Program-made: the position numbers and the translations under genes | The notes under the pieces: model-generated | Told to the model about the DNA's origin: nothing | Seen by the model: only the letters and a program-made list of their open reading frames with translations | The model's database searches: none | Part shown: piece by piece, positions 1-43,594 of the stretch | Layout: each line of letters begins with the position of its first letter | How positions within the stretch are numbered: the stretch's first letter is position 1 | Origin: a virus | Lineage: Duplodnaviria; Caudoviricetes | IMG/VR virus record: IMGVR_UViG_2623620552_000001 | Location: 18,464 to 82,463 of that record | DNA length: 64,000 nt | Direction: 5' to 3' (one strand)

Positions 1-678
1 AATGAATACATCAAATCGGGATGCTGTCTCACGGCATAAGTCGCAACTGTAGAAATTGGCTATCGGCTGTATGGGGTATAATCCTATGCCGAGTCCTCTC
101 TCGCAGGCGGAGATAATCTCCCATAGAAGATATCTTATGCCTTTATTGCCGAACTTACGTGCTATGCGGTTATAGCATTTCACTTGGTCGATGTTATGGT
201 AGTACTTCACAAAATCAAGTTTGGAATAGTAAAGTCTTCCTGCTTTCTTGTGCTTGTCTATCCACTTTTCTGTGCGACGGGCGGCGAAGTGCATTCCCTT
301 GCCCTCTATTGAGGCACTGCTGTCGTAGTAGTAGTGTCGCATCAATATCGGCATGATGACACGCATCAGTGCATGGTGTTCTATATGGTCTGGGAAATAC
401 GGCAACTTATGAAGCCGGCGCATCTTTCCACAAGGACACCACTGCTCTACTTCCTGTCCAGGCGATGTATGATAAGTTCCTGTCATTAGCATCTTCTGAA
501 GGTTGTCAAGGTTCTTGTCACGTTCCTTGTCGAAGAGACGGACACCCTTGTGACCTCCTTTGCGCTTGCGAGCCTCACGGTCTGCCTCTATCAGGTTGTA
601 CATCTGCCACACCTGTTCTATGCGTACCTTGCGGTTCTTTCCACGCTTACTATATGTCAGTTCCTTTTCTTCCATCAT
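1..678 (-). CDS. DGR reverse transcriptase (5' part, 226 codons, truncated at window edge)
   Basis: Not in the ORF track. Manual translation from ATG 678 gives MMEEKELTYSKRGKNRKVR...KLPYFPDHIEHHAL...SASIEGKGMH...KLDFVKYYHNID...GLGIGLYPIQPIANFY..., matching RT motifs 2-4. It lies next to a TR. Confidence 0.93.
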   Translation of the reverse strand, partial: MMEEKELTYSKRGKNRKVRIEQVWQMYNLIEADREARKRKGGHKGVRLFDKERDKNLDNLQKMLMTGTYHTSPGQEVEQWCPCGKMRRLHKLPYFPDHIEHHALMRVIMPILMRHYYYDSSASIEGKGMHFAARRTEKWIDKHKKAGRLYYSKLDFVKYYHNIDQVKCYNRIARKFGNKGIRYLLWEIISACERGLGIGLYPIQPIANFYSCDLCRETASRFDVFI

Positions 679-892
679 ACATGATAATTTCTCACGGCCT
701 TCTACACTTTTGGCTACCGAGCGTTCGGTATAGGCGCACAACTGCCTTGCTTACTTGCACAGCGGGACTTTGTTTCATACCCAATGCCTTTTATTTTTGC
801 TCTGTCGGGTGTTACCCCTCCATCGAGACAGGTTCAATCGTGTGACCGGCCCGTAACTTGGGACGCGTCCCCGTATATTTTTTTATAGTGTC

Positions 893-12970: not shown

Positions 12971-15900
12971 TTATTGTTCGTCAATTTTCTTCCTCATTCT
13001 TACTACCTCGTCGTACATTTCGGGTAATACCCTGGTATTCTCGCTAATTTCGGCAAGATGTGAGTTCATAAGGCCTTGCGTTTCCACCATAGACTGAACA
13101 CCCTCACTGATATTTACTACTCTTGCTCTTGTTTCTCTTATATTGTCGCCTATATCTGTAAGGAGTTCGGTGTGTATCATTGTTTCCGAAAGAGTCTGCT
13201 CTAAGAGAATGGTATGATTCAGTCCGATACCAACAAGGCTGTCTGCTTGGTCGTAGGAAATGTTCTGTATAGAGTTTGCCGTAGCGGATTGTTGGCTACG
13301 AGCATTCTCAATCCTGTCTATGCCTAACTCTCTTAACTGTTCTATTTGGCTGATACCCGAATCAATAACACTTTGGTAACCTCTGTAAAAAGCATCATTC
13401 GCCTCTTGCAAAGCCTTTTTGTCGTTGTTTGCGTTAGCAGCCGATACACTCTTATACCAAGTATCATAGAGAACCTTTAGTTGGTCTTTAAGATTCTGTG
13501 CTACAAGGTTGTTGATAAGCATCCTGTTAACCATCTTCTGCCAACTCTCTGCTATGCTGTCGGTTACATCTTCTACACCATCAGCATAGTCGTAGAGATG
13601 GTTTATCATATCGTCAAAAAGGCTATCAAATGAAGTAGTAAGCATTATCTCGGAAAGTTTCTCCGATGCTTCCTCCATCTCATCGGCGAGGTCAGCCCAT
13701 GCGTTAGCAGCTTTTGAGATACGTCCTTCGTCGTCCCATCCTGTATTAGCAATCTGAAACCATAGTTCTGCGGCTTCGGCATTTCCTTCTTCGGCAAGAC
13801 GACGCAACTCTGCGAGTTTCTTCGCACCTTCATTACCCATCTTAGAAAGTTGTTCAAACAGCCCTTGCCATGCTGTACCATATTCGCCTTCTGATAAGCC
13901 AAGCAAGTTCCTTATTCGCCATACATATCCTCCTTCTCCTTCACCTCCATTCTCGTTTCTATAATACCATTCGCGATGTCGGCGACCATAATAACCCCAA
14001 CCAGCTTCTTGTATCTGACGGTTATACTGTGCAGATTTATTAATGAACTTCTCTAGCAAATCCTCATACTTTGATAATGCGCTTGCACCATAACTTTCTG
14101 ACATCTCGTCAGAAATACGCTTTACACTCTTGTCGATACTTTCAAGGATAGTGTTAGAAGCCTTAATTTCTGCGTCAACTTGCGCTCTTGTATCTTTCGA
14201 GCCAAACCATGAGTCAAAGCCACCAAATGTAACAGCGTTAAGGATATTTCCTATACCTTTCGTTAACGAGCCTGTTATCTGTCCTACAAAATCAAGCGAT
14301 AGAACATTGTCTAAGATACCTGCAACGGCATTTAGAACAGTATCTATGAGATTCGAAATAAGTGTTCCTATTCCGTCTTTTAATATATCAAGAATAGATA
14401 GGATAGCGGAGATTAGTTGTCCGATAAACCCGGCATTGCTAAGAGTGTCGGACAACTTGCTAACAGCCTTTCCTACCTCTCCACCGATATTCAGTTTAGA
14501 GAGGCCATTAAGCATATTCTGAATGCCTTGAAAAGCACCAGAAAGCGTATTGTCGGCAAATCCTCTAAGGCCGTCGGCTACTAAGTTAAGTCCGTCAACG
14601 GTATCTTCTTCTGATTCTCTAAGGCCGTTAGCAAGGTTCTGAACCGCTGTTTGCTGAACTCTAACAGACTCGCTCGCAGCAGTGGCAACTTTTTCCGCTA
14701 AATCAAGACTTATCTTTGCATTTTCAATCTCGGCTTTATTACCAGAATCTAATGCTTTCTTATATCTTTCTTTTGCTTTTTCAAGGTGCTCGGTAGATGT
14801 TATCTCGGCATTCTTTGCTTGTTGGAGCCTATTAATAGCAGCACCAAGACTATCCATCTGCTTCTTTATAGAAGAGAAATTCAGTGTACCTCTGCCCTCA
14901 CCCGTTAGCCCTTTTAATTTTGTTATAGCATCATAGACTACTTTTTGGTCGGCTTCATTCTTCTTTGCAAAACTCGGCTCTCTTACATATTGACGCAGTT
15001 TCTCCAAAGTGGTTCTGAGTTGGTCTCCTAAAAGGTTTGTAAACCCGCCAAGAACAGATTGCCAATCAATACTCTGTTGTAGAGCACTCATATTGACAGC
15101 ATTCTTCTTGCTATTCTCCTCTGCCTTCAACCTAAGAACCTCTCCTTTAAGACCGAGGGCTTCTGCTTTTGCAATCATCTTAGCATACTTCTCAGTAATG
15201 GCAAGTTTTTGTTGTTGGAACGTACCATACTCTATTAGGTATTCTCGCATTGATTGAATTTGCTGTTGCAATTCATTATTCTGCTGACGGGCAATAGTAA
15301 ACTCCTCTAACTTCTTATATTGCTCTTTTATAGCATTAATAGCACTTTGGTCTAACTTTGTTTCATCCCATTGCTCAGGTTTGCCTCCGCGTGCTTTGAT
15401 TATCTTCTCTTGTGCTTCAAACTCGGCTTTTTGACGGGCTCGCTCTGCTTCAATAGCAGCTTTTCGCTGTTCTGCTAACTGCTCTAGTTCTTTTTCAAAG
15501 GAACGATTCTTCTCAGCAAGAACCTTGTCGGCTCCGTCTTTCATTGCAGCAATACGAGCATCAGTGATTCTTTGCTCCATATCCTGCTCTGCTTTTGCTC
15601 TAGCAACGACATTCTTATGGATAATCTCTTCTAACCTTGCCTCGGATTCATCTATCTGCTGTTGCTGACGGGCATCTTTCTTCCCTGCGTTAGCCATTGC
15701 TTTGAGGTTGGACTGTTGCATACGAACAAGCATTCGTGTTGAAGCAGCCCTCTGTGCTTCTAAGGCATAAACAGCGCCTTGTGCTTCTCTTTCTTTTGCA
15801 TAACTTTCGATAGACATTGTATGAAGAGCGTTACGCTCTTTTGTTATGCGGAGAAGTTCTTTCTGAGCCTTAATCTGCCCATCATACTTCTCTTTAAGCA

Positions 15901-18028
15901 TATTCTTTACAAGTTCTATCTGAGCGTCCTTCTCCTTACCTGTGAGGGTGTATATCTTTTCACGCTCTCTGGCAATATCTATTTCAAGTTGTTTTTCTTT
16001 TACCTTGGCTTCAGAAAGTGCTTTCTGTGCGTTAAGTTCTTGTTCTGCTAACTGTGCGGCTTTCTTTGCTCTGCCAAACATATCGGCACCGATAGCACCG
16101 AGGTCAGCTGACCAACCTTGACTAATACCTTCGCCTAAGAGTTTAACTGTTCCTTTTGCTGCTCCGGCAAGAGTGTCCCAACCTGATTTGAGAGTATCAA
16201 CTACCGAGGTGCCTGCTTTCTTTAAATCCTCCCATCCGTTTTTTATTCCTTCTATGGCTTTCTTTGCTTCTGCGACATTCGCTCCTGACGCTATAAGGTC
16301 TATAACGCCTTTGGCAATCTGACCTACACCTGAAAGTGTCTTAGCGACGGCTTTAAGAGGATTAATGACTAAGCCTATTAATCCTTTGCCAAATTGGTTT
16401 AATGCACCTTGTGGGTCGGCGAAAGCGTGGTAAAGATATTTGCCTATCTTTACCGCTATATCCATAAGAGAGGAAAGCAGACTACCGAGATAGGCTGTAA
16501 TCTTAGCAAACGCACGCTGACCTTCCGCATCTTTTTTAAACCACGCAAATATTGCTTGTAATGCTAATACAATAGCACTAAGGACTGCTCCGATAGGTGT
16601 CGCAGCCATCGCCCATAAGGCTTTGGTGAATGCAACGGCACCTCCAGTTGCTGCTGTAAAAGGTGCAACCAGACCGCTAAGAGCGGTTTTCATGTTACCC
16701 AATGAATCTTGGAACTTGCCATTTCTTGTGATTGCATCTACGACACTATTCTTCCATTTTGCGAGGTAGCCACCTGCCCTACCTTCTTCCGACATCTCTT
16801 TCTTTGTGTCGGCAATCTCCTTCTTGAGATTGTTAATCTTTTCTAGAAGTTCTTGTGCTTTCTTAGATTGTTGGTCAAACCCTTGTTTCTCGGCTAACTT
16901 GTCATACTCCTCTTGAAGGGACGCATGCTCTTTCTTAAGGTTCTGTAATCTGTTATGTAACTCGTTAACAGCATTCCATTGTTCTTTGAAAGATGACGAT
17001 GCGGATTGCGAGGACTGATTTTCCTCGTTCTGAGCAGCAGACACTTGTTCCGTAGTAGACAAGAGTCTTGCTTTTGCATCCCTTAATTCATTGAGAGTGT
17101 TGCTATATAGTACGGCTTTCTGCTGTGCCTCTACATAGTCCGCTGACGTTATGTATTCATTCCACTCCTCTCGGCGCTCTCCTTTCTCACCTACGAAGTT
17201 AGTTGTCTTTGCGTTTTCGGCATTGTACAACTCCTGTATCTTAGCAATCAACTCATCGTATTTCTGGATAGCCTTCTGAATATCTCCGTCTTTTGAGAGT
17301 TCTTGGTTTATACTCTCTATCTCCTTATGGAATGGTTGTAGTGCGTCAATAGCCTCTTTTTGGGCTGCCGTTAACTGTTTTTTGCTTTCAACGTTTTCTT
17401 TGGTGGCTTCCGTTTCTTTTGTCATTTCGGAAGCATTAGCAGCGTGCGCACCTGCTTCTACGACAGTAGCAGCAGTTACCGCACCATGAGCGACAGCATT
17501 AGCTGCCGTGCTTACGTTTGCCACACCGAGCATAGAAACGAGTCCGTTATAACCTGCCTCCATTTGCTGAACAACAGCATACTGAGCCTGATAAGCATTG
17601 GTATTGTTATGTATCTGCTGCTCTACACCTGCAATAGAGGTTTTTAACTGATTATACTTCTCTGAGCCTATGACTGAGCCACTTAACTGAGTATTCAGCT
17701 TTGCGAGTTCTTTTTCAAGGTTTGCTGTCGCTGATTCAGTCTGTTGCATCGCTTCTTTGGCAAGACGTATTTGCTCTGGATAGTTTGCAAGTGCCGCTTT
17801 TGCTTCTTCGGTAGCCTGAGCAAACACCTCCATAGCCCGCTTTTGTTTCGTTGCGCTGTCGTCAGTAGACTGTGCTATCTCACGCATTGCATCGCTTACA
17901 CGCTTGCTAAGTGCATCGGTCTTTATGCCAATCTTATCGAGATTGTTTATCATCTCGTTTATAGAGCGGTCTATGTCTGATATATCAAGGTGTCCGCTTA
18001 TACCAAGTATTTCGTCGTTTGCTGCCAT
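12971..18028 (-). CDS. Tape measure protein
   Basis: About 1685 aa, helical/coiled-coil with hydrophobic Gly/Ala patches. Start moved to ATG 18028 (MAANDEILG), just downstream of the promoter at 18054-18062. Confidence 0.88.
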   Translation of the reverse strand: MAANDEILGISGHLDISDIDRSINEMINNLDKIGIKTDALSKRVSDAMREIAQSTDDSATKQKRAMEVFAQATEEAKAALANYPEQIRLAKEAMQQTESATANLEKELAKLNTQLSGSVIGSEKYNQLKTSIAGVEQQIHNNTNAYQAQYAVVQQMEAGYNGLVSMLGVANVSTAANAVAHGAVTAATVVEAGAHAANASEMTKETEATKENVESKKQLTAAQKEAIDALQPFHKEIESINQELSKDGDIQKAIQKYDELIAKIQELYNAENAKTTNFVGEKGERREEWNEYITSADYVEAQQKAVLYSNTLNELRDAKARLLSTTEQVSAAQNEENQSSQSASSSFKEQWNAVNELHNRLQNLKKEHASLQEEYDKLAEKQGFDQQSKKAQELLEKINNLKKEIADTKKEMSEEGRAGGYLAKWKNSVVDAITRNGKFQDSLGNMKTALSGLVAPFTAATGGAVAFTKALWAMAATPIGAVLSAIVLALQAIFAWFKKDAEGQRAFAKITAYLGSLLSSLMDIAVKIGKYLYHAFADPQGALNQFGKGLIGLVINPLKAVAKTLSGVGQIAKGVIDLIASGANVAEAKKAIEGIKNGWEDLKKAGTSVVDTLKSGWDTLAGAAKGTVKLLGEGISQGWSADLGAIGADMFGRAKKAAQLAEQELNAQKALSEAKVKEKQLEIDIAREREKIYTLTGKEKDAQIELVKNMLKEKYDGQIKAQKELLRITKERNALHTMSIESYAKEREAQGAVYALEAQRAASTRMLVRMQQSNLKAMANAGKKDARQQQQIDESEARLEEIIHKNVVARAKAEQDMEQRITDARIAAMKDGADKVLAEKNRSFEKELEQLAEQRKAAIEAERARQKAEFEAQEKIIKARGGKPEQWDETKLDQSAINAIKEQYKKLEEFTIARQQNNELQQQIQSMREYLIEYGTFQQQKLAITEKYAKMIAKAEALGLKGEVLRLKAEENSKKNAVNMSALQQSIDWQSVLGGFTNLLGDQLRTTLEKLRQYVREPSFAKKNEADQKVVYDAITKLKGLTGEGRGTLNFSSIKKQMDSLGAAINRLQQAKNAEITSTEHLEKAKERYKKALDSGNKAEIENAKISLDLAEKVATAASESVRVQQTAVQNLANGLRESEEDTVDGLNLVADGLRGFADNTLSGAFQGIQNMLNGLSKLNIGGEVGKAVSKLSDTLSNAGFIGQLISAILSILDILKDGIGTLISNLIDTVLNAVAGILDNVLSLDFVGQITGSLTKGIGNILNAVTFGGFDSWFGSKDTRAQVDAEIKASNTILESIDKSVKRISDEMSESYGASALSKYEDLLEKFINKSAQYNRQIQEAGWGYYGRRHREWYYRNENGGEGEGGYVWRIRNLLGLSEGEYGTAWQGLFEQLSKMGNEGAKKLAELRRLAEEGNAEAAELWFQIANTGWDDEGRISKAANAWADLADEMEEASEKLSEIMLTTSFDSLFDDMINHLYDYADGVEDVTDSIAESWQKMVNRMLINNLVAQNLKDQLKVLYDTWYKSVSAANANNDKKALQEANDAFYRGYQSVIDSGISQIEQLRELGIDRIENARSQQSATANSIQNISYDQADSLVGIGLNHTILLEQTLSETMIHTELLTDIGDNIRETRARVVNISEGVQSMVETQGLMNSHLAEISENTRVLPEMYDEVVRMRKKIDEQ

Positions 18029-18053
18029 ATTTCTATATTTTTGCGATTTTATC

Positions 18054-18113
18054 GCAAATTTAAGGCTTCTCACGGCGTTTTGGAAATGTTCGAGTATAAG
18101 TATATAAACAAGT
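18054..18113 (-). promoter_or_regulatory. Putative late promoter for TMP: ACTTGTTTA-N42-TAAATTTGC
   Basis: -7 box at 18054-18062 and upstream 9-mer at 18105-18113; the same geometry recurs at six other promoters. Confidence 0.7.
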
Positions 18114-18158
18114 AGCAAAACGCTGTTAGATTGCGTTAAAATAAGTCTTAGGCGGTTT

Positions 18159-18217
18159 ACTTGTTTACTTTGATAAAGTCTAATTTGACTTTATTATAGT
18201 AATATGGTGTACTTTTG
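18159..18217 (+). promoter_or_regulatory. Putative late promoter for the HTH gene leader: ACTTGTTTA-N42-TACTTTTG
   Basis: 9-mer at 18159-18167, -7 box at 18210-18217. Confidence 0.65.
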
Positions 18218-18221
18218 TGAC

Positions 18222-18389
18222 GTAGTGCTTTGGAGAAGTTATATGTAAAGTCCCCCGGCACTACAGAAAGATGCTTCACTAACTTTCAATAGAATTGCCC
18301 TCCGAGGAGGTGCCGAGGGACCGTGTATGTCCTTGCCACTCGCCGGAAGGCAGATAATTCTATTTGTTAGTGAAGCGAGTGCAAATTTA
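18222..18389. ncRNA. Structured 5' leader with overlapping antisense RNA candidate
   Basis: Long hairpin (gcttcactaac 18273-18283 with gttagtgaagc 18366-18376; aatagaatt/aattctatt), alternative pairing 18250-18261 with 18310-18321, and a - strand TAAATTTGC box at 18381-18389. Confidence 0.55.
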
Positions 18390-18406
18390 CTAACTTTAAG
18401 TGATTT

Positions 18407-18646
18407 GTGCAAATGAAAAAGGTTTTATTTTTGAAATTAAACGCTGAAATGTTAAAACTGATGTCAAAATGTGGCCTCAGAGAAGATGACTATAAGTACA
18501 TAAGAGCGTTTGAAGAGTACACTTTCTTAAGGAACGAGAATCAGAAAGTCGATGTCATACTTATGGAACTTTCTAAGAAGTATAGAGTATCTGAAAGCAC
18601 TCTAAAAAGGGCTTTTCGCAGGCTCTCAGGTGAGGTCAGATACTGA
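18407..18646 (+). CDS. Small HTH DNA-binding protein (start may be ATG 18413)
   Basis: C-terminal LSKKYRVSESTLKRAFRRL helix-turn-helix pattern. Confidence 0.75.
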   Translation: MQMKKVLFLKLNAEMLKLMSKCGLREDDYKYIRAFEEYTFLRNENQKVDVILMELSKKYRVSESTLKRAFRRLSGEVRY

Positions 18647-18700
18647 CCTTTGGAATATTATACTTTTGTTGTTTCTTGCCGTTATTCTGTCTAATTTTGC
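18633..18700 (+). promoter_or_regulatory. Palindromic operator AGGTCAG-ATA-CTGACCT plus TAATTTTGC promoter of the Cys-rich operon
   Basis: Perfect 7-3-7 inverted repeat at 18633-18649, ending 42 nt before the -7 box at 18692. Confidence 0.65.
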
Positions 18701-18757
18701 CTCTGTCAAGGTATTGACACAGGTAACATTAGTATTAACAATTTAATTTCTACAACT

Positions 18758-19315
18758 ATGGCATTAGAAATGAATGATTTGATGATGCTGCGAGGTATGG
18801 ATAAGGAAGGGCTTTCTCCTTACGAGCAGTACAAGGTTGGTTTCATGCAACAGAAGAATCACACAAGTGGTATCGGAGTTGCGGGTTTAGTTCTCGGTAC
18901 GGTAGGTACAGCCGCAGCCGTTGGTGCTTGGATTTTCGGTCCGATGTATGGTAATGCAAAGGCTAACCAGGCAAAAGAGGTTGCTAACTCTGCAAAGGAA
19001 CTTGCCAATGTACAGATTGCTGCAAGTCAGCGTCAGCTTGACCAGTTGACAAGTCTGCTTGCATCGGAGCGTAGTGAACGTTTGCAAGGCGACTACACCA
19101 TCAGCCAGACTATCACCGACACTGTTAGCGGTCAGCAGGCTTCAAACCTCACCGCACAGCAGGCCGCAGAGTTGTCTGCCGTGAACTCTGTAATGCAACA
19201 GACCTATTCCGACTTCGTGACAGGTCGTGCCTCTCTGAACCCCACTCCTGTAAGTTTGTACTCGGCTCCCCAGCCTTGTGCTTGCCCCGCAAGTGGATGC
19301 GGTTGTAACGGCTAA
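18758..19315 (+). CDS. Hypothetical protein: Gly-rich hydrophobic segment, coiled coil and Cys-rich tail
   Basis: 185 aa; GIGVAGLVLGTVGTAAAVGAW, ending PQPCACPASGCGCNG. Confidence 0.85.
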   Translation: MALEMNDLMMLRGMDKEGLSPYEQYKVGFMQQKNHTSGIGVAGLVLGTVGTAAAVGAWIFGPMYGNAKANQAKEVANSAKELANVQIAASQRQLDQLTSLLASERSERLQGDYTISQTITDTVSGQQASNLTAQQAAELSAVNSVMQQTYSDFVTGRASLNPTPVSLYSAPQPCACPASGCGCNG

Positions 19316-19324
19316 AAATGGCAA

Positions 19325-19366
19325 TGGGTGTACTTAGGTATTTTCAGGTACTTTTAGGTACACCCT
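19325..19366 (+). terminator. Intergenic hairpin with 10-bp periodic aggta repeats
   Basis: gggtgtacttag...ttaggtacaccc inverted repeat right after the 185-aa gene. Confidence 0.5.
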
Positions 19367-19393
19367 CATTTTCAACAACTTAGAACACGGCAA

Positions 19394-19753
19394 ATGTTAT
19401 GGTTTACAAACAAAAAGAAACGATTGGAGATGATGCAAGGAATAAGACCAACGAGTAAGGCAACGCTGAAATTGCAATGTTTGTTCTGTTGCAAGGGAGA
19501 TATTGACGAGGCTATGAAACTCTATGACTACTTTGCTAAGGATATGCCCGAACTTCCCGACTACGACCCTGTACAGCCAACATGGATGGATAACACCAAA
19601 GAAACTGTAAATGGTCTTATGGGATGGCTTAGAGAAAATCAAGACACTCTGGCACAAGGGTATGACTTTATTCGTGGAATAATCCAGAGCAGGCAACTGC
19701 CACCGATAACTCCCGAAACACCGTCAGCACCACTACCACCAATCAACGAGTAA
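19394..19753 (+). CDS. Hypothetical protein
   Basis: 119 aa; CLFCCKGDIDEA motif and Pro-rich C-terminus. Confidence 0.8.
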   Translation: MLWFTNKKKRLEMMQGIRPTSKATLKLQCLFCCKGDIDEAMKLYDYFAKDMPELPDYDPVQPTWMDNTKETVNGLMGWLRENQDTLAQGYDFIRGIIQSRQLPPITPETPSAPLPPINE

Positions 19754-19772
19754 TTACTAACACGGCAAGAAT

Positions 19773-19988
19773 ATGGAAGAAAAGAGATTAAGAGGTTTCC
19801 CGATAAGTTTCAATATCTATGCGGAGAGCGAGGAAGAGGTTGAAGAGGCTCGTATGGCTATTATTGCTTTCATTGGCTTACACGCTTCACAATGTAGGGC
19901 TGTCACGGCAAAGAAAGTAGCACAAGCCTTATCCAACTGGGATAAGAACCCAATAGTAAAGAATCATATAATCAATTATTTCAAGTGA
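19773..19988 (+). CDS. Hypothetical protein
   Basis: 71-aa ORF in a tightly packed operon. Confidence 0.75.
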   Translation: MEEKRLRGFPISFNIYAESEEEVEEARMAIIAFIGLHASQCRAVTAKKVAQALSNWDKNPIVKNHIINYFK

Positions 19989-19989
19989 T

Positions 19990-20268
19990 ATGGAACAGAC
20001 AAATCAGAATCAGTTTAAGTGTTCGGGCAACTGTCTACAATGTTTGCCTGCACAGAGAGCGTATTGCTCCTCACAGCACGCTTACTCCAATATGAAAGTC
20101 CTTGATATGGTTGCCAAGGCGGTGCTGAGTATGCAAGGAGAGATTAGTGTTATCAAAGAGAAGATAGAGACTATACAGAATAACGAGGCTAACATCTTTG
20201 ACCCTAGTATAGCGCAGAAAGGGGACGGCGCAGTAATAGAGCCCCAAAATAATTCACTTAACATTTAA
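19990..20268 (+). CDS. Hypothetical Cys-motif protein
   Basis: 92 aa; CSGNCLQC...YC followed by a coiled coil. Confidence 0.8.
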   Translation: MEQTNQNQFKCSGNCLQCLPAQRAYCSSQHAYSNMKVLDMVAKAVLSMQGEISVIKEKIETIQNNEANIFDPSIAQKGDGAVIEPQNNSLNI

Positions 20269-20273
20269 CTATT

Positions 20274-20720
20274 ATGGCTTGTAACAATGGAAAGACATTC
20301 GTGGTTAGTTTGACTACGGTGCCTGGCGGTACCGCCGCCAATGCCAACTATCTGTTGGCTCTCGACCACTTTACTTGTGGTAACAAAAAATTATGTATTA
20401 ATGAGTCCTATCCGGTAACGGCTGATCTGAAAGCAACAGCTATCGGTCTGCCTGTCGATGTAGGCAATGGAACGTTCTGTCAAGAGGTGCTTATCAACGG
20501 TACGGTAAACTATATGCCGTTCAAATGTGGGTGCCAGTGTGGAGTATGCCCTGTGACGGAGAGTATTTACTGTTCTATCTGTGTTCCTTGCTCGTCAGCA
20601 GCGACACCGACACTTGCCGTAGGAGCATCGAAAGCTGCACCAACAAACGTTCAGCCCTGTTGCAATGTGACTAACTGCGTGGCTATCACCACAACGCTCA
20701 ACGTAACGACTGGTGCATAG
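20274..20720 (+). CDS. Cys-rich beta-structured hypothetical protein
   Basis: 148 aa with 14 Cys (CGCQCGVC, CSICVPC, PCC), Thr/Val rich. Confidence 0.85.
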   Translation: MACNNGKTFVVSLTTVPGGTAANANYLLALDHFTCGNKKLCINESYPVTADLKATAIGLPVDVGNGTFCQEVLINGTVNYMPFKCGCQCGVCPVTESIYCSICVPCSSAATPTLAVGASKAAPTNVQPCCNVTNCVAITTTLNVTTGA

Positions 20721-21084
20721 TATGGAATGGATTGATATTGCGGGTATCGTCTTTATCTGCGTAACGATGAACCATCTCGGACTGATAAGCAAGATAGAAG
20801 AGATATACGGTGGAAAAATCCCTATCCTCAACTGCCCTAAATGCGCAAGTTTCTGGATAACCTTTATATTCAGTCTATGGGAAGTATCATCGTTTTACGG
20901 AGTGATAAAGGTTCTCGCAATATCTTTCCTCGCAAGTTATATAGCTATATGGCTGGAATTATTAGAAGGATATGTAGATACTTTATATATTAGACTATAT
21001 GGGAAGATTTACGAAACCTCAGACAACACGCCTGCCGCAGATGCCGACAATGGTAATCCCGCAGGCTCCGTGCCCGAATTGTGA
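20713..21084 (+). CDS. Membrane protein with CxxC-xx-FW motif (DUF1360-like)
   Basis: Three hydrophobic segments and ILNCPKCASFW. Confidence 0.65.
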   Translation: MHSMEWIDIAGIVFICVTMNHLGLISKIEEIYGGKIPILNCPKCASFWITFIFSLWEVSSFYGVIKVLAISFLASYIAIWLELLEGYVDTLYIRLYGKIYETSDNTPAADADNGNPAGSVPEL

Positions 21085-21118
21085 AAAGACACAAGTCCGC
21101 AAGCATGGAAAGAAATAG
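20999..21118 (+). CDS. Possible 39-aa CxxC peptide overlapping the upstream gene
   Basis: MGRFTKPQTTRLPQMPTMVIPQAPCPNCEKTQVRKHGKK; not in the ORF track. Confidence 0.4.
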   Translation: MGRFTKPQTTRLPQMPTMVIPQAPCPNCEKTQVRKHGKK

Positions 21119-21268
21119 GTTCTCTTTCTTTTAAAAGTAGGCAGAAAAAAGTGCTGATTTAAGAGAAAAGGATATTGAAAGAAGATAAAAACCGTCTAAA
21201 AATCAGACAGTTACTTATCCTCTGGATTTAGTCCGCAGATAAAATAAAAATTTTAAAATTAAGAAAAA

Positions 21269-21751
21269 ATGACACAAGAAGAGATGAAGAAAGAGTTTAG
21301 TGCCCTCTATGATATGATGGCACGCTCAGAGAAAGTAGAGTATATGCACACCTTTGGTATGGTGCATAGGGAGATGATGGAATGGTTCATACAGAACAAG
21401 CCCGAACTCGCACAGGAATGGCTTGACAAGTTAGAATCTATCCGTTGGAAGAACTACCTCTCTCCGAAGGAAGCAGAAAAAATTGTTGCAAAGATGAATC
21501 CCCAGGCTCCGTGGAGCAAGGAACAGTGGAAACAAGCAATGGAGAAAGAAGGCTTTGAATTAGAGAAAGAACCTTGTTATAACCGTTGCGCTCTTTGGGT
21601 AACTATGGAGATGATTATGTCAGATTCTTCTGAAACGCTTTCAAAGTTTGTGCAAAGCGCAGACATCTTCAAGGTTGTCTATGGTCTTGCCGTTGACAAA
21701 CTTACCGACAAGGATAACGTTTTCAATATCCGACATTATTTTTCTCTCTAA
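21269..21751 (+). CDS. Hypothetical helical protein
   Basis: 160-aa ORF with an A-rich Bacteroidetes-type translation start context. Confidence 0.8.
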   Translation: MTQEEMKKEFSALYDMMARSEKVEYMHTFGMVHREMMEWFIQNKPELAQEWLDKLESIRWKNYLSPKEAEKIVAKMNPQAPWSKEQWKQAMEKEGFELEKEPCYNRCALWVTMEMIMSDSSETLSKFVQSADIFKVVYGLAVDKLTDKDNVFNIRHYFSL

Positions 21752-21754
21752 GCA

Positions 21755-22021
21755 ATGAATTATAGTGAGTTGATGCGAAGGAAACTACTTGAAGACATCT
21801 ACAATAAGATGTCCGACGAGGAAAAACGTACCTTTGTACAACTCACTTTACAAGATAAGAGCCATCAGGAGATTATGGAAGCGCTCTCCCGTCAGAGAGC
21901 ACAACTTGAAAGCATAGAGAAGAAACAGAACTGGGTAACCGATTTCGGTAGCGACGTAGCAGCAAACTTCCTCACTGACGGCCTTATATTCTTCGGGCGA
22001 AAGTTGTTCGGCAAACTATAA
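21755..22021 (+). CDS. Hypothetical protein
   Basis: 88 aa; amphipathic C-terminus DFGSDVAANFLTDG. Confidence 0.75.
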   Translation: MNYSELMRRKLLEDIYNKMSDEEKRTFVQLTLQDKSHQEIMEALSRQRAQLESIEKKQNWVTDFGSDVAANFLTDGLIFFGRKLFGKL

Positions 22022-22024
22022 CCA

Positions 22025-22525
22025 TCACTTTGCCGTGTTGGTTGAGGGTGGCAACTTTGTTTGTCGCCCTCTAACCGATTTATTAAGGATTAACTTAATC
22101 TTTGCTTTTATCTTCTCTGGATTGCGAGCGTCGTGGTTTGAAAGGCGCACAACGTGATAACCTAAACGCCATATCCCGCTACTTCGGTTAGTGTCTAATC
22201 GTCGTTGCTTAGTAGTAAAATGATACCCTCCATCTAATTCTACTATAGTTTTGATTTCTGGAAGATAAAGGTCTGCAAAATAGATGCGCCTACCTGTGTT
22301 TATAGGATACTGCCTAATAACCTTGTAACCGAGAGCGTTAATTGTACGAAATGTTATTCTTTCTGCTTCGGATGACTTTGCCATTAGGTCTGCACGCCTT
22401 AGACGTAGCCATTGCTCAGATATGCGCTTGCAACAACTTTTCTTCCGTTGGGTGTTTGTGGGCTTTGTACTTCGCGTAAGGAGTTTTTCTGAACTCGCAG
22501 CACACTTCGTATTCTTCGTAATCAT
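22025..22525 (-). CDS. DUF559/Vsr-like endonuclease
   Basis: RQYPI...YFADLY....IVELDGGYH...D..R......GYHVVRLSN. Confidence 0.8.
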   Translation of the reverse strand: MITKNTKCAASSEKLLTRSTKPTNTQRKKSCCKRISEQWLRLRRADLMAKSSEAERITFRTINALGYKVIRQYPINTGRRIYFADLYLPEIKTIVELDGGYHFTTKQRRLDTNRSSGIWRLGYHVVRLSNHDARNPEKIKAKIKLILNKSVRGRQTKLPPSTNTAK

Positions 22526-23095: not shown

Positions 23096-23560
23096 TTATT
23101 GTTTTATGTTAAACTTATTTGCGTTTATCTTCTCGTATATCATCTTAAGTTGTTCTCTTTGTCTCTTTAGCCTCTCTTTTCGGTTTTCACTTAGAACTAC
23201 TTTTTCTTTCTTTTTATTCTTGCTATCTTTAATAGCCTCATATAGGGATTGAACAATTATTCTATCGTAACATTCACTATTTGAGATTCGAAGTGTTTTA
23301 ATACCCTTCTTCTTTAGAATAAAATCCCTTTCTTTGTCCTTTTCTTGTCTCTGAGAATGAGAACTTCCGTCTATCTCTATTGCAACTTTATAATCTTTTA
23401 TGTATATATCAATAAAATACTGGTGCGTTCCGCTTTTTACATAGTATTGGCAAATTGCTTTCTTCTTTAACTTAGGAGGAAGATGTGAAAATATCCACTC
23501 TTCTTCTCTTGTTCTGCTTTCTAAGAGCTTTTTTCTTGTAGTCTTTGCCCAATTATTCAT
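23096..23560 (-). CDS. DUF559/Vsr-like endonuclease
   Basis: YFIDIY....VAIEIDGSSH....KDKERD..L...GIKTLRISN. Confidence 0.8.
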   Translation of the reverse strand: MNNWAKTTRKKLLESRTREEEWIFSHLPPKLKKKAICQYYVKSGTHQYFIDIYIKDYKVAIEIDGSSHSQRQEKDKERDFILKKKGIKTLRISNSECYDRIIVQSLYEAIKDSKNKKKEKVVLSENRKERLKRQREQLKMIYEKINANKFNIKQ

Positions 23561-34531: not shown

Positions 34532-35290
34532 ATGAGAGGTGCAATTATCGGTGATATTATCGGTTCAAGATTTGAGTTTAACAACCTCAGAGAAAAAGAG
34601 TTCGACTTCTTTACAGAAGAATGTGACTTTACAGATGATACAATATGTACGGTAGCTATAATGGAAGCTATCTTGGAAAATGATTTGGATTACGCAAGGC
34701 ATTTACAGAAGTGGTGTAGAAAATATTCTTTCCCGAAAGGCGGATATGGAGCGTCTTTTGCCCAGTGGGTCAACAATCCCAATCCTCAGCCTTACAACAG
34801 CTTTGGCAATGGTGCGGCAATGAGAGTTAGTCCTGTTGCATGGGCTTTCAATACGGTAGGAGAGACTATTTCTCAGGCTATCGCTACCGCTAACGTATCA
34901 CATAACCACCCCGAAGGCATCAAAGGTGCTATCGCCACTGTTCACGCCATAATGCGCCTTGAAGCATCTAAGGATAAGACACAAGCAATAATTACAGAGC
35001 AGATGTATTACGACCCATTCCAGTCTTATGAAAGAGGGAGGTTCGACGAAACCTGTCAAGGTACAGTTCCCGTTGCTCTAAGAATAATAGACGATAGTTC
35101 TTCTTTTGAAGATGCAATGCAACTCACAATGCAATGGGGAGGAGATAGCGATACGCTCGGTGCTATCGTTGGCGGTATGGCAGAAGCCCTCTATGGCGTA
35201 CCAGAATATCTGTGGTCGCAAGCAGAGGCATTCTTGCCCTTTGAAATGAAGATGATAATTGAAGAGTTTTATAAAAGGTTTGTAATATGA
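34532..35290 (+). CDS. ADP-ribosylglycohydrolase (DraG/ARH family)
   Basis: GAIIGDIIGS, FTDDT, SFGNGAAMR, SHNHPEG and GGDSDT motifs. Confidence 0.93.
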   Translation: MRGAIIGDIIGSRFEFNNLREKEFDFFTEECDFTDDTICTVAIMEAILENDLDYARHLQKWCRKYSFPKGGYGASFAQWVNNPNPQPYNSFGNGAAMRVSPVAWAFNTVGETISQAIATANVSHNHPEGIKGAIATVHAIMRLEASKDKTQAIITEQMYYDPFQSYERGRFDETCQGTVPVALRIIDDSSSFEDAMQLTMQWGGDSDTLGAIVGGMAEALYGVPEYLWSQAEAFLPFEMKMIIEEFYKRFVI

Positions 35291-35616
35291 AAAGAGAAGA
35301 TTTAATCAAGCAATGCCGCTATTACAGCGGAGAAGAGGTGTGTCCTTTTACAGAAGAGAGGATGCAATGGTTCTGGGATATGGAAAGGGTGTATGTAGAG
35401 ACCGAAGGTAAGTTTGTTGGAGAAACGGAGACCTATCATAAACTCGACGGACGGAGATACACAGGCATCCCTCATAACTTACTAATGGTAATGTTCACAG
35501 GATGGGCAAAGTATACCGCTGATATGGAAAAGCATTTAGAGGATTTCTATGACCTTATGGAGGTATATCTTGATATAGTAAGCGACCATATCTCAAAGAC
35601 GGCAATACCGGGTTAG
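35287..35616 (+). CDS. Hypothetical protein, candidate immunity partner of MuF-ART
   Basis: 109 aa (CRYYSGE..CPF...FWDMER); coupled to the hydrolase, and its stop overlaps the MuF stop. Confidence 0.6.
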   Translation: MKREDLIKQCRYYSGEEVCPFTEERMQWFWDMERVYVETEGKFVGETETYHKLDGRRYTGIPHNLLMVMFTGWAKYTADMEKHLEDFYDLMEVYLDIVSDHISKTAIPG

Positions 35617-38273
35617 TAACCGATATTGCTGTCTAATACATAAGAGAGGTCTTTAATCTCTTGACCCACGATTTCAACATCTATATAGGTCTTATATCCG
35701 TCGTTATAGACTTTCGTTATTCTCATTTTTGTTCCTCTCTGGAAGAGCGTTTCATCTTCTCTACTAAACCTTTTATATCTTGTTACTCCGTCCCACTTAA
35801 CGCTTTGGGCTCCTTCTCCAAACTGACTAAAAGGCTCTACATAGGCAGCTTTCGTCCCTTTAGGTGCAAAGATATTAATTACGACTTCATTACTACTGAA
35901 TCCTGAACTACGACGTGAACCAGTACTCATAAAACCGCCCTCTTGCATTGTCATACCAACAAGGTCTTCTATCTTATTGGGCCACTTGCCGCCGGCAAAC
36001 TCTATTCGTGAACGGATAACAGATATATCTCTATCGCCACGCATGAACCACATATCTTTTGGCAGAGGGTTTCTTTCAATGTATCGGGTTATGAGATTGA
36101 CCTTTGTTTCAAAGTTTGTCCTTGATTGGCTGCCTACATAGCGGCGACCTTGCAACGGCTCATTCTTGTCGCAATAATGGTGTGTATATTCATATATCTT
36201 CTCTCGCTCCATTTTTGTTGCTGCTTGCCATGCTTTTGAAGCGGTTGGGAAGAGGGTATCGTCAGCAAGTTGTCCGTTGCCAGTGTCCCATACGGCGGCT
36301 TTCTTTCTCTCTTCGCTGAATATCTCGCTAATACCTTTCCCTTTCTTAGCATAACCTCTATCATATTCTATCTGTTTCTTCTTGGCTTCGGCTTTACTTA
36401 GAAGTTCCTGTGCAGCATTAAGGTCTGACTTACTTGATACAGCAGATTCTATATCGCTCAGTATATTGTTAAACGGTACGCTCTTAGTATCAAAGGCTTT
36501 AAGTTCTGTCAGTGCGCTTTCTATCTTCTGCCAATCAATGATAGATTGTGTTTCCTTTATGAGTTTCAGATATGCGCTCTCGGCAACTTTTGATGTAGGA
36601 TAAAGGTTGTGAGGTTTGAGATAAGTGCTATCAACGACATACAATGCTTCTGAATTAAGTTTAGAGAGCAAGTATTCCTCTAACGAAGCATATTTTGATT
36701 TAAGATAGCTGTTCGTCGCATAGTTGCCGCTCCATTTTGCAACATTATTACTAACAACTTTTTCTACTTCCTTAATATCGGAGAGAGAGAATTGTTTTAA
36801 CCATTCCCTTGCGTCAGGAACTGTCTTTTCTATCAATGCCGCCTCTTTGTTTATTCTTGCTATCTCCTTTGCAAGAGCTCTACTATATTCCCTTGTAGCA
36901 ATAGTATCGCCTTTGATAATAGCATTACGAAGCATTGACTTCATGCCGATTGTTTCGGTGTATTCGAGTTTGTCGGCAACCTGCCAAACATTCTTACCTG
37001 TCTTAATGATAAGGGCATTCTTTGCTTTTCGTTCATCCCAACGGCGCTGAATGTCTGCCTTTTCGGCTTCTGTCTTAACTCTCTTAACCCTTGCGATACT
37101 TGGCTGATAACCCATTTTAAGAAGTTCCTCGGGCGAAAATTGCTTGCCCACATACTTCATATTATCACGCCAAATCCAACCAAGTTTTCCACGTTCACCA
37201 GCGGATATAAACTTATCCCTGTTAGCATCAATCCACTGCTTTGCACGGTCAGGTAAATCTTTGACAGCATTCGGAGAAACATATCCGCTCATATCCTCGC
37301 CAGCAGCCAAACGGCGATAAAATTCCTTCTTCTCCTCTCCTTGTATTGTGATGGGATTAGACATACAAAGGCATTGTGGGTGCCAACCCGTGAAGATAAA
37401 GTCTTTCGGGTAGCGTCCAGCCAGTTCGTCGCACTCGTCTGGTGCAGGGTGTTGTGGCGACAAGTCTATAACAATGCCGATGACAAACGGCTCCATCTGC
37501 CATCGTTCCGCATTGGCACGGTGGTAGGCTCCGTTTATCTCTGTCCGCATCAGTCTGTCAGCGTTCCGCTTTGACGAGCGATAATGACCCATACCGACTT
37601 TTTCCAATGGCTCTTCTACGAAACGTACTTTTCCGTTCTCGTCCACAATACGTCTGCGCCACTTTACAACATCTTTCTTATTGCCTTGTGCATCGACTAC
37701 GGTACGATGATAGCGGCGATACATCATATCGGGGTTATTAAGATACTGACGGACTTGCAAACCGAGTGATGCCGCACTTGTGCCTTTCTTTAATCCGTCA
37801 GCAAGGACATTCGACACTGCCATCTCAAACTCCGCTTTCGTCTGAGAGCAATAGTTCCAAACAAGTTGAGAGAGGTTTAATCCTTCGGAGGTTTTTAGGC
37901 GATTGCGAATAAACGTTTCTGCGGCGGTATTTCTTGCTTGGCTTATTGCTTTATTGGAGAGGATAGAAAAACCCGAGAGAACCGCATTATCGTGCGAATA
38001 CGCCAATGCTACGCCATCTGTTATGCCGGCACGATAGGCTAACATATCCTTTTGAACGTAATCAGAGAAGATTTCGTTGAGTTCCTCACGTAATTCGGGA
38101 TAGTTGCCGAAGCGATAGAGCACATTCTTCTCTAAGAAGTCCTCTACACCAACACCTGACTTATGAGCAATAACGGTAAGGCGGTCTATGAACTTGTCAT
38201 AGAGGGTTTCAAGGCGCTTGGAGTAAGCACCAAACATTGCCGTTAGTTGTTTCCGTTTCTGCTCGTTTGTCAT
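35613..38273 (-). CDS. MuF/SPP1 gp7-like minor head protein with C-terminal ADP-ribosyltransferase toxin domain
   Basis: RLMRTEIN.AY, CDELAG.YPK.F.F.GWHPQC.C (MuF); C-terminal MRG...GFMSTG...REDETL (R-S-E clade ART with ExE). Confidence 0.88.
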   Translation of the reverse strand: MTNEQKRKQLTAMFGAYSKRLETLYDKFIDRLTVIAHKSGVGVEDFLEKNVLYRFGNYPELREELNEIFSDYVQKDMLAYRAGITDGVALAYSHDNAVLSGFSILSNKAISQARNTAAETFIRNRLKTSEGLNLSQLVWNYCSQTKAEFEMAVSNVLADGLKKGTSAASLGLQVRQYLNNPDMMYRRYHRTVVDAQGNKKDVVKWRRRIVDENGKVRFVEEPLEKVGMGHYRSSKRNADRLMRTEINGAYHRANAERWQMEPFVIGIVIDLSPQHPAPDECDELAGRYPKDFIFTGWHPQCLCMSNPITIQGEEKKEFYRRLAAGEDMSGYVSPNAVKDLPDRAKQWIDANRDKFISAGERGKLGWIWRDNMKYVGKQFSPEELLKMGYQPSIARVKRVKTEAEKADIQRRWDERKAKNALIIKTGKNVWQVADKLEYTETIGMKSMLRNAIIKGDTIATREYSRALAKEIARINKEAALIEKTVPDAREWLKQFSLSDIKEVEKVVSNNVAKWSGNYATNSYLKSKYASLEEYLLSKLNSEALYVVDSTYLKPHNLYPTSKVAESAYLKLIKETQSIIDWQKIESALTELKAFDTKSVPFNNILSDIESAVSSKSDLNAAQELLSKAEAKKKQIEYDRGYAKKGKGISEIFSEERKKAAVWDTGNGQLADDTLFPTASKAWQAATKMEREKIYEYTHHYCDKNEPLQGRRYVGSQSRTNFETKVNLITRYIERNPLPKDMWFMRGDRDISVIRSRIEFAGGKWPNKIEDLVGMTMQEGGFMSTGSRRSSGFSSNEVVINIFAPKGTKAAYVEPFSQFGEGAQSVKWDGVTRYKRFSREDETLFQRGTKMRITKVYNDGYKTYIDVEIVGQEIKDLSYVLDSNIGY

Positions 38274-39431
38274 TTACCTCTTCTTTTTCTTTTTCAATGT
38301 ATTCAGAATATACTCCTTACTAACGCTTGCAATAGTGCGAGTATTCTTATTGCTTGCTCTTGTAAAATTGACAAGACATTTGCCAAACTCCTCTGAATTA
38401 ACCGCACCGCTATCCTTGAAAGCCATAGCACGCATGGAGCCACCCCATATCTTATGATTACGAAGAAACTCCGTTCCGCAGCATTCGGCACCGCAACCAT
38501 AACGGCTGCTGATAAGGTTGTCGGCATTGAAGAACTTTACTCCGTGCTTCTTTCCGAGATAGGTATAGGTGGAAAGCATACTACGTTTACTTTCCTCGTT
38601 ATATACCCTATCGCCACTCTCTATCGTTCCATTCTTCTTAAAGTAGCCGAGGACATCATAGCCAAGAGCGTCGCCAATCTTCTTGTAGATTTGCTTCTCC
38701 TTGCCTGATGCGATAACTCTTATCTTCAAGCCTTCCGTTTCAAAGCCCCATGCACCACATTCTTTAAGCATACCAATGAAGCGGTCTGCTACCTTTTCCG
38801 AGTAAGGCAAGATAAAAGGCTGAATACGGACTGTAATACGGAAGCCCATCTCCGATAGTTTCTTAATAGCAGCAAACCTGCGAGAGGGTGATATTGCGCC
38901 ACATTCAATCTGTCGTGCTATATTATCGTCACAGAATGAGCAACTGACATTAAGGGCGATGTTTGAATTCTTAAACTCCTCGGCATAAGAAAGAAATACT
39001 TCGGGGTTCTTGGTGGAAATCTGCACTGGATAGTCAATCTTATCAAACACCTTTAAGCAATCATAGGTGATATGCTCCCATTTCTCTACCACAGGAAAAG
39101 GGTCTGCCGTAGCACCAATCTTTACAGGAATGCGCTCTTTGAAAGCCACTTCGGCTGCTTTGGTGTAGTCATAAGGACTGGCAAGCGTCTTTTCTACCCA
39201 GCGCACAAGCCCTTTCGGGTCATTGCCCTCCAAATATGATTGTTTTCGGTGTTCTTCGCTCTGATTTCTGCGAGTAAACTCAATGAAATCCCTTGCAAAG
39301 CAGAACAAGCAACCATAAGTGCAGCCCCTATAAGTATCGAAATGGAACGGTATCGGACAGACACAGAACTGACTTGTAACACTCGGTGCCCAAAACTTCC
39401 TCTCTATCTTTCTTTCTCTTTCGTCTGCCAT
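38274..39431 (-). CDS. Radical SAM protein (SplB-like)
   Basis: DTYRGCTYGCLFC (CxxxCxxC), G...DPF, STK and RIQP motifs. Confidence 0.85.
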   Translation of the reverse strand: MADERERKIERKFWAPSVTSQFCVCPIPFHFDTYRGCTYGCLFCFARDFIEFTRRNQSEEHRKQSYLEGNDPKGLVRWVEKTLASPYDYTKAAEVAFKERIPVKIGATADPFPVVEKWEHITYDCLKVFDKIDYPVQISTKNPEVFLSYAEEFKNSNIALNVSCSFCDDNIARQIECGAISPSRRFAAIKKLSEMGFRITVRIQPFILPYSEKVADRFIGMLKECGAWGFETEGLKIRVIASGKEKQIYKKIGDALGYDVLGYFKKNGTIESGDRVYNEESKRSMLSTYTYLGKKHGVKFFNADNLISSRYGCGAECCGTEFLRNHKIWGGSMRAMAFKDSGAVNSEEFGKCLVNFTRASNKNTRTIASVSKEYILNTLKKKKKR

Positions 39432-41005: not shown

Positions 41006-41023
41006 AAATTACACGCTTTTTAT

Positions 41024-41083
41024 GCAAAATTAGGTGTTTTAGTGATGTTTTATAAGGTTTTACGTTAGTAGCAATAAACAAGT
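41024..41083 (-). promoter_or_regulatory. Putative late promoter for portal: ACTTGTTTA-N42-TAATTTTGC
   Basis: -7 box at 41024-41032, 9-mer at 41075-41083. Confidence 0.7.
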
Positions 41084-41084
41084 G

Positions 41085-41725: not shown

Positions 41726-41744
41726 AGTTCTTTAATATTAATAA

Positions 41745-41776
41745 GGGTGGAGATTTGTAATGTGTTCTCCACCCTC
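41745..41776 (-). terminator. Hairpin after major tail gene
   Basis: agggtggaga...tctccaccct inverted repeat. Confidence 0.6.
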
Positions 41777-41805
41777 GATTTGTGTATGTACTAACTGTTG
41801 ATTAA

Positions 41806-42360: not shown

Positions 42361-42366
42361 AATCGT

Positions 42367-42786: not shown

Positions 42787-42788
42787 AT

Positions 42789-43591: not shown

Positions 43592-43594
43592 ATA

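Follow-up and report, generated by a model that had tools for sequence, protein, structure and literature searches.

A cysteine-rich ten-gene accessory cassette that appears to travel as a unit between rumen and gut phages

The window analysed here is a 64,000-nucleotide stretch of a tailed phage genome (IMG/VR record IMGVR_UViG_2623620552_000001, positions 18,464 to 82,463; G000:C24:18464-82463). It contains a block of ten + strand open reading frames (ORFs), g1-g10 (18413-22021), lying head-to-head with the tape-measure gene (12971-18118; phrog_9959, 2.4e-42). The block is best explained as an autonomous accessory transcription unit (moron), moved by recombination between otherwise unrelated Bacteroidales phages, and sequence comparisons indicate that it passes as a whole among many phages of the rumen and gut. 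As to function, we tentatively propose a self-contained accessory unit building an inner-membrane-anchored metal- or cysteine-knuckle complex for phage-phage or phage-host envelope conflict, a role that we regard as possible rather than probable. Bacteroidales phages of the rumen and gut rank with the viruses most abundant in animals and people, and their accessory genes are mostly unexplained.

An earlier note, made from the letters of the window, had described a + strand operon of 8-9 genes back-to-back with the tape-measure side. The divergent arrangement was borne out and the block is real, but its ORFs number ten.

Conservation and exchange of the cassette

Searches of IMG/VR identified 18 loci with g6 and 21 with g2, and 38 loci on 32 contigs were fetched. 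When these were compared with the ten proteins by tblastn, gene order and strand proved to be preserved in all 38 loci, at 25-88% identity. Recovery of the same order throughout shows that g1-g10 are more than chance ORFs, and the co-occurring, self-contained unit that the earlier note had supposed was found in all these loci and in phage BS162P1 (see below). Removal of duplicates (L021, L024-L028, L031, L032) left 30 loci, in which g6, g7 and g9 are present in all 30, g3 in 29, g2 and g4 in 28, g5 in 26, g10 in 21, g8 in 18, and g1 in 17, where it stands upstream of the block. Locus L008 has g1 and g6-g10 and is missing g2-g5. The carrier phages span 40-144 kb.

A diverged copy with unchanged gene order is carried by the cultured Bacteroides phage BS162P1 (OP172706.1, 65.3-68.4 kb), in which every gene of the unit is annotated as hypothetical. 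Identities range from 27% (g9) to 45% (g3), with E-values that come from a 16-protein database and are hence generous. The unit sits amid replication and nucleotide-metabolism genes. Since this phage grows on Bacteroides salyersiae, the function of the cassette is open to direct testing in the host. A blastn search with positions 18100-22100 and a tblastn search with g6 gave no match in the "phages" database. DUF7841, the family to which g9 belongs, was detected in 2 of 401 sampled Bacteroidota genomes, one of them the window's own, and relatives of g6 occur in five species genomes titled as Prevotella, Prevotellaceae or Bacteroidales metagenome-assembled genomes. Neither DUF7841 nor BS162P1 was found named in the literature searched, and passages of a 2025 Gut Microbes paper (PMC12694917) mention neither this phage nor the cassette.

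The flanks of the cassette vary between loci and include tape-measure, integrase, holin-like, endolysin and glycosyltransferase-like genes. The tape-measure gene is a divergent neighbour in the window and in L005/L027, and lies downstream on the same strand in L004/L025, while an integrase gene is the neighbour in L012, L013, L020 and L022. Homologues of the first two genes of the lysis cluster of the phage studied here (Table 1) follow directly downstream, on the same strand, in L020, L029/L032, L030/L031 and L034; an endolysin homologue lies upstream in L009 and a spanin-like gene adjoins the unit in L012. Such variable siting between otherwise unrelated neighbours is the mark of a moron. 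A unit kept so carefully, in temperate and apparently non-temperate phages, almost certainly has a function visible to selection.

Three possible associations of the cassette were rejected: an obligate link to lysogeny (a tyrosine integrase in only 14 of 27 records), a link to 7-deazaguanine genes (QueC in 1 of 27) and a link to the reverse transcriptase of diversity-generating retroelements (RVT_1 in 9 of 27). Among records at least 90% complete, 10 of 15 have a tyrosine integrase; the 90-130 kb records and BS162P1 are without one. Fused forms of g9 or g2 were sought among longer proteins and none was found, which is weak evidence, and a search with the N-terminus of the tape-measure protein found no relatives. 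Other cassettes behind g1-like regulators were sought with the single protein, which gave one already known contig; the alignment was too diverse to serve as a query.

The history of the genes within the block was examined by correlating pairwise gene identities across cassettes; related sequences are not independent, so the outcome is a pattern rather than a test. The highest correlation links g5 and g10 (0.76), which are 1.5 kb apart, followed by g3-g10 (0.63), g3-g5 (0.62) and g9-g10 (0.60), with g6-g7 at r 0.48. By contrast, low values were obtained for the adjacent pair g5-g6 (0.04), for g2-g6 (-0.01) and for g4 against all others (0.04-0.34). These correlations suggest that g6 (with g7) and g4 have been exchanged independently of the co-varying g2, g3, g5 and g10.

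Cassette products and control signals

Comparison of g1-g10 with Pfam, PHROGs, NCBIfam and PADLOC revealed no enzyme family, in line with the earlier note, which had recognised no enzyme motif, and no other characterised family. Real family matches are limited to g9 (DUF7841, 1e-21) and g1 (PHROG 17790, 9.6e-12), and both families are without known function. The Cys motifs that the note had quoted are all present (Table 1), and its 148-aa protein with 14 Cys is g6. In a hydropathy scan g3, g4, g5, g6, g8, g9 and g10 showed no hydrophobic segment, and no signal peptides were seen in them by eye, so in this anaerobe most of the Cys motifs are expected to be cytoplasmic.

Table 1. Features of the cassette, its control regions and the separate lysis cluster. 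Positions are those of the window, except for the last four rows, which give positions in L041, i.e. on the same contig C24 upstream of the window (L041 15008-16808 = C24 15008-16808).
Feature	Position	Strand	Remarks
Conserved control region	18240..18400		between tape-measure gene and g1; three (C/T)ACTAAC copies, inverted repeats I4 and I5
g1	18413..18646	+	77 aa, helix-turn-helix (HTH)-like putative regulator; GTG 18407 = alternative start
Candidate promoter and operator before g2	18661..18732	+	TAnnTTTG-like boxes 18661-18668 and 18692-18699
g2	18758..19315	+	185 aa; transmembrane helix; C-terminal CxCPxxGCGCNG; ends PCACPASGCGCNG
Inverted repeat GGGTGTAC...GTACACCC	19327..19365	+	between g2 and g3; read from sequence
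Element copy 1, AACACGGCAA	19384..19393	+	abuts g3 ATG; ≤2 mismatches in 19/30 cassettes
g3	19394..19753	+	119 aa; QCLFCC; Pro-rich tail ending LPPINE; no hydrophobic segment
Element copy 2	19759..19768	+	4 nt before g4 ATG; ≤2 mismatches in 16/29 cassettes
g4	19773..19988	+	71 aa, small protein
g5	19990..20268	+	92 aa; CSGNCLQC; CxGxCxxC-x7-C knuckle at N-terminus
g6	20274..20720	+	148 aa, 14 Cys (9.5% Cys); predicted all-beta
g7	20713..21084	+	~120-123 aa, membrane protein, CPKC; ATG 20722 likelier start
g8	20999..21118	+	39 aa, CPNC; overlaps variable tail of g7 in +1 frame
g9	21269..21751	+	160 aa, DUF7841; predicted all-helical
g10	21755..22021	+	88 aa, helical by eye
Element copy 3, inverted	22030..22039	-	8 nt past g10 stop; ≤1 mismatch in 16/31 cassettes
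11-bp hairpin closing the unit	22044..22071	+	G.U pairs work only on + strand RNA
Spanin-like gene	L041 15008-15499	-	163 aa, lipobox-like signal and C-terminal transmembrane segment; by reading
Endolysin gene	L041 15496-16119	-	phrog_181, 2e-75
Two-transmembrane holin-like gene	L041 16136-16423	-	by reading
Transmembrane plus coiled-coil gene	L041 16428-16808	-	by reading

The putative regulator g1 matches phrog_17790 over residues 3-74 of 79 and has a weak GntR HTH match (0.022). The g2 product combines a conserved 37-aa N-terminal head (SPYEQxK), one glycine-zipper transmembrane helix, a rod-like stretch, which was called coiled coil by reading the sequence, and a four-Cys tail. A single transmembrane segment is found in all 29 homologues; in alignment A2, C176 and C181 are invariant and C174 and C183 are kept in at least 90% of the sequences. 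Lys and Arg are richer on the N-terminal side of the helix (2.28 vs 1.31), which weakly suggests an N-in, C-out orientation. Comparison with the Rz-like spanin family phrog_1026 gave a weak match (0.037).

Two or three hydrophobic segments are present in 28 of 31 g7 sequences, and N20, H21, G23, C41 and C44 (C41xxC44) are invariant in alignment A3. The CxxC loop bears the positive charges and is therefore probably cytoplasmic. The earlier note had called this protein DUF1360-like, a suggestion that holds in part: Atlas neighbours hint at a remote relation, but the profile hidden Markov model (HMM) of DUF1360 (PF07098) gave no match at E up to 0.1, nor any in a scan of the window's own genome at E up to 10. 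The Atlas entry of g7 begins at residue 4, and its neighbours include clusters partly annotated as DUF1360. In one of these, with a feature score of 0.91 and a TM-score of 0.81, DUF1360 accounts for 10% of the members, and in another, with a TM-score of 0.57, for 52%; the models on both sides are of low confidence. The g7 protein may thus be, at best, a remote DUF1360 relative. No match was obtained to the thiol oxidases DsbB and VKOR (PF02600, PF07884).

Within the close g6 family (alignment A1), C35, C69, C89, C92, C103 and C106 are invariant; in the wider family, with 6 to 16 Cys, the best-kept columns are C35, C41, C87, C92, C129 and C130. The AF2 model of g6 is confidently all-beta (pLDDT 88.6, pTM 0.80). 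Fold searches gave no convincing neighbour (Foldseek best E 0.08 against the PDB and 0.05 against BFVD; best Z of the wide VIA search 4.7, to CS/HSP20-type sandwiches), and sequence profiles of the PDB gave nothing under E 0.068 for g2, g6 or g7. Relatives of g6 number 365 in 5.8 billion clusters, and in the listed sources they are named, if at all, as "hypothetical protein"; 63 were found when 1.84 billion representatives (at 50% identity) were searched with a profile. A separate observation concerns protein P0177 (1494 aa), which carries PKD/Ig domains and the type IX secretion signal domain CHU_C: five stretches of it match the N-terminal half of the g6 profile (E 7e-6), perhaps because of similar composition or through a relation of the Ig-like type.

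The CxGxCxxC-x7-C knuckle of g5 is kept in a 27-sequence alignment and in BS162P1, and the stretch downstream of it was read as helix or coiled coil. In g8, TRLPQ..PQAPCPNC is conserved and is followed by a basic tail; as this motif is kept despite the overlap with the poorly conserved tail of g7, g8 was taken as a real gene. The g9 match to PF25223 (DUF7841) scores 77.8 bits against a gathering cut-off of 25.2, and the genome scan places it at the same position. AF2 models it as a helical domain with pLDDT 94.5, for which fold searches gave no match (Foldseek best E 1.2; VIA best Z 5.2, on residues 1-63 only). A C-terminal segment of g10, W..FGSDVAAN.LT....WL..KLF, is conserved and amphipathic by eye. 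The Cys residues of g3 and g4 are not conserved across the alignments, and two sequence types of g4 are apparent by eye.

The repeat AACACGGCAA, which the earlier note had seen before the starts at 19394 and 19773, was found there, and the end of the cassette carries one more exact copy on the minus strand. Allowing one mismatch, the window has 10 copies where 3.76 +/- 1.87 would be expected, a number that none of 100 shuffles reached; in the whole genome there are 17 exact copies, against 7 of the reversed control, and 3 of the 17 fall within the 2.7 kb of the cassette. The element was surveyed in 31 cassettes, a match being at most two mismatches within 36 nt before a start, or at most one for the end copy. 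It is absent before the other starts examined (g2 0/29, g5 0/27, g6 0/31), and the end copy is kept although downstream genes differ between cassettes. A second cassette subfamily carries TTCACGGCAA at both starts and ATTCACGGCGATAT at the end; comparison of the two subfamilies gives the core CACGGC(A/G)A.

On + strand RNA the 3' copy is complementary to both start regions. Such RNA pairing is not our preferred reading, because the consistent A-to-G change of the second subfamily would give an A.C mismatch. Sites for a DNA- or RNA-binding protein, or recombination joints, are possible alternatives. The closing hairpin is unusually stable: the fold of 22016-22085 has -26.3 kcal/mol (z -4.92), and 0 of 200 shuffles were as stable. 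GC-rich hairpins occupy the equivalent position in other loci.

Upstream of the cassette, positions 18020-18420 align with L027, the nearest relative, over 426 columns with a mean column identity of 81%. The ACTAAC repeats lie at 18275-18286, 18366-18376 (inverted) and 18386-18397. Also upstream of g1, at 18250-18376, two inverted repeats interleave, one of 12 nt (92%) and one of 11 nt (100%); the stem of the first is preserved in L027 through base changes. Rfam gave no match for the control region. Before g2, a 19-nt imperfect palindrome, I2 (18691-18709 / 18714-18732), overlaps the second of two TAnnTTTG-like boxes, which we read against what we take to be the Bacteroides -7 promoter consensus. 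The earlier note had credited the operon with its own regulator and operator; the HTH-like g1 supports the regulator, while the operator amounts to candidate repeats and the palindrome. Taken together, the cassette is predicted to carry two confidently folded proteins without a known fold, g6 and g9, and a cis signal of its own.

Possible roles of the cassette

In the explanation that we rank first, the products of the cassette would come together at the inner membrane, whether the cell is infected or lysogenic. The g2 protein would serve as a bitopic anchor with a probably periplasmic rod-like segment and four-Cys tail, and g7 would be a small polytopic protein with its CxxC loop probably facing the cytoplasm. 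The CxxC/CxC knuckle proteins g5, g6 and g8 would be cytoplasmic and most likely metal-binding, with g3, g9 and g10 as additional cytoplasmic helical subunits. The purpose might be to exclude or outcompete other phages, or to alter the envelope to the phage's benefit; diversifying pressure would then act on g6, the subunit that is swapped separately from the others, and the CACGGC(A/G)A sites would bind a cassette protein that tunes g3 and g4. The role in envelope conflict was ranked first because the unit lies at junctions, is rare and has a self-contained layout, and because g6 is swapped independently.

Several points weigh against this explanation. Its topology of g2 and g7 comes from crude hydropathy and charge counts, metal binding is deduced from the motifs, and the envelope-conflict role itself, which we hold at less than even confidence, is read from genes and sequence. 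Of the Cys shared by all members of the close g6 family, four (C69, C89, C103 and C106) are not kept in the wider family or in BS162P1. The presence of the cassette in records without a tyrosine integrase (5 of the 15 that are at least 90% complete), and in BS162P1, means that it is not solely a lysogen function. The PADLOC-DB 2.0 defence models gave nothing beyond scattered matches (0.004-0.02) to unrelated long models, we know of no exclusion protein that resembles any member of the cassette, and eight to ten genes are many next to known exclusion systems.

A bolder version, which we think unlikely, sees in the cassette a new phage-borne envelope machine: a self-regulated trans-membrane complex of metal- or cysteine-knuckle proteins, in which the swapped beta-sandwich protein g6 would set specificity, for a rival phage or for the periplasmic redox or metal state, and in which CACGGC(A/G)A would serve as its own post-transcriptional or looping control.

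Lysis offers another account. The cassette could be an accessory module of lysis that sets the timing of envelope disruption or helps to bring it about, with g2 as an i-spanin- or antiholin-like protein and g7 of a small holin type. The holin-like, endolysin and spanin-like neighbours in other phages, the weak Rz-like match and estimated type II topology of g2, and the occurrence in integrase-less phages speak for it. However, a separate lysis run of minus-strand genes was located in L041 at 15008-16808, ~20 kb from the cassette (Table 1), and its 163-aa product looks like a unimolecular spanin. The cassette is not the lysis cassette of this phage, which owns a full set elsewhere, and for this reason lysis was dropped as the leading explanation. 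No muralytic enzyme was found among g1-g10 in Pfam and PHROGs and, on reading the ORF list, no lipobox ORF, so that the unit is without endolysin and lipoprotein partner; products that have no hydrophobic segment play no role in known lysis schemes. A relation of g2 to the transmembrane plus coiled-coil protein of the lysis cluster was also rejected (hhalign probability 0.4%). We regard a role in lysis as improbable.

A membrane-tethered organiser or sensor seems more doubtful still. It would anchor phage DNA, replication or assembly, as p16.7 of phi29 anchors phage DNA and replication at the membrane, or would relay a periplasmic redox or metal signal via g2 to g1, g4, g5, g8 and g10, which would be small nucleic-acid-binding proteins. 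The architecture of g2, the several small proteins with HTH-like or knuckle motifs, the private cis element at two translation starts and the setting of the BS162P1 unit among replication and nucleotide-metabolism genes are in its favour. Against it, no DNA-binding family was recognised when 108 members of g3, g4, g5 and g10 were scanned with Pfam: no single family was matched by more than 5 of them, and the Sigma70_r4 hint for g10 appeared in just 2 of the 108. The independent swapping of g6 would also be unexpected for a housekeeping organiser.

It is very improbable that the products are structural proteins, disulfide-cross-linked into an oxygen-protective coat, an inclusion or a virion decoration. 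The Cys content of g6, the many CxC motifs and the position of the L004/L025 cassette directly upstream of the same-strand tape-measure gene favour this, as does the host, in which nothing above the cut-off was found for DsbB or VKOR (weak matches on other contigs only, C26 at 0.31 and C21 at 0.015), so that disulfides would arise only upon air exposure. Against it, neither HMM nor fold searches linked any product to proteins of coats, exosporia, capsid decorations or tails, signal peptides were not seen, members of the g6 family have anywhere from 6 to 16 Cys, and the variable location and separate regulator are unlike a core virion part. The earlier note had compared the products with spore coat or exosporium proteins while supposing that the host does not sporulate. 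The supposition was supported, as Spo0A_C was not found in the 95%-complete host genome, which in turn counts against a coat. The comparison was not supported, with no match to CryBP1 (PF07029) at E up to 10 and with spore-related Atlas neighbours (0.81-0.83) in the chance range. The protective coat fared no better, since most products look cytoplasmic and neither g3 nor g4 has kept its Cys across homologues; the note's alternative, a metal- or redox-binding assembly, would fit the conserved CxxC and CxC motifs better.

Genomic setting and comparison with known systems

Contig C24 (82.5 kb) is phage-like over its entire length and comes from a Bacteroidota host, whose genome has 17 SusD matches. 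An S24 repressor gene and replication genes stand at the contig start, with head, tail, 7-deazaguanine and ADP-ribosylation genes further on and an integrase gene at 62621-63832 of the window. Just upstream of the lysis cluster lie two tandem paralogous 59-aa membrane ORFs (L041 16812-16991 and 17188-17367, minus strand), both of which contain ...KSxFETIWYxIFWPVLIPLY.... A reverse-transcriptase-like ORF (phrog_1423, 2.6e-15), which runs from window positions 1-741 (minus strand) into L041 17795-18463, adjoins tail-fibre genes, an indication that the phage carries a diversity-generating retroelement.

Two DUF559 endonuclease-like genes, at 22025-22525 and 23096-23560 on the minus strand, separate the cassette from the early block of the + strand. 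The last 20 codons of the first cross the end hairpin and element of the cassette, so its true stop may be further upstream. The order of virion genes is unusual, as the capsid, connector and putative tail-tube genes come first and are followed by those for the portal and minor head proteins (39512-50026), and 17 kb of opposite-strand genes separate the tape-measure gene from this group. At 34532-38273 a Bxa-type ADP-ribosyltransferase is fused to a minor-head-protein domain (phrog_16625, 4e-112), with an ADP-ribosylglycohydrolase gene adjacent on the opposite strand. Two radical-SAM genes lie within the head module (38274-39431 and 50553-51416); their scores place them with the PA0069/Rv2578c or spore-photoproduct-lyase-like kind, and a function as peptide maturases was rejected. 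A full 7-deazaguanine set (GTP cyclohydrolase I, QueE, PTPS, QueC, a QueF-like and a transglycosylase-like gene) at 51959-56194 points to modified DNA.

Among established families, the nearest to the cassette are two Pfam entries. The g9 protein is a member of DUF7841, a family without known function, and its model has no fold match. The g7 protein is similar to DUF1360 proteins in size and in having several transmembrane segments, but its NH...CxxC signature is specific to g7, and DUF1360 is itself uncharacterised.

The two-component spanins of phage lysis cassettes, such as Rz/Rz1 of lambda, bear a partial likeness to the unit. The g2 protein likewise has an N-terminal transmembrane segment followed by a rod and Cys, g7 and g8 form an overlapping pair, and holin-like neighbours occur in several phages. 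In contrast to Rz/Rz1, the cassette is without endolysin or lipoprotein, g2 bears a conserved 37-aa head predicted to be cytoplasmic, and a complete set of lysis genes lies elsewhere in the phage.

Morons and superinfection-exclusion genes of temperate phages include bor and lom of lambda and gp15 of HK97. These comprise one or two genes, against eight to ten genes of common order in the cassette, most of whose products are predicted to be cytoplasmic, and no sequence relation was found. Like them, it is self-contained, is placed at junctions near tail, lysis or integrase genes, and has products predicted to be located in the envelope.

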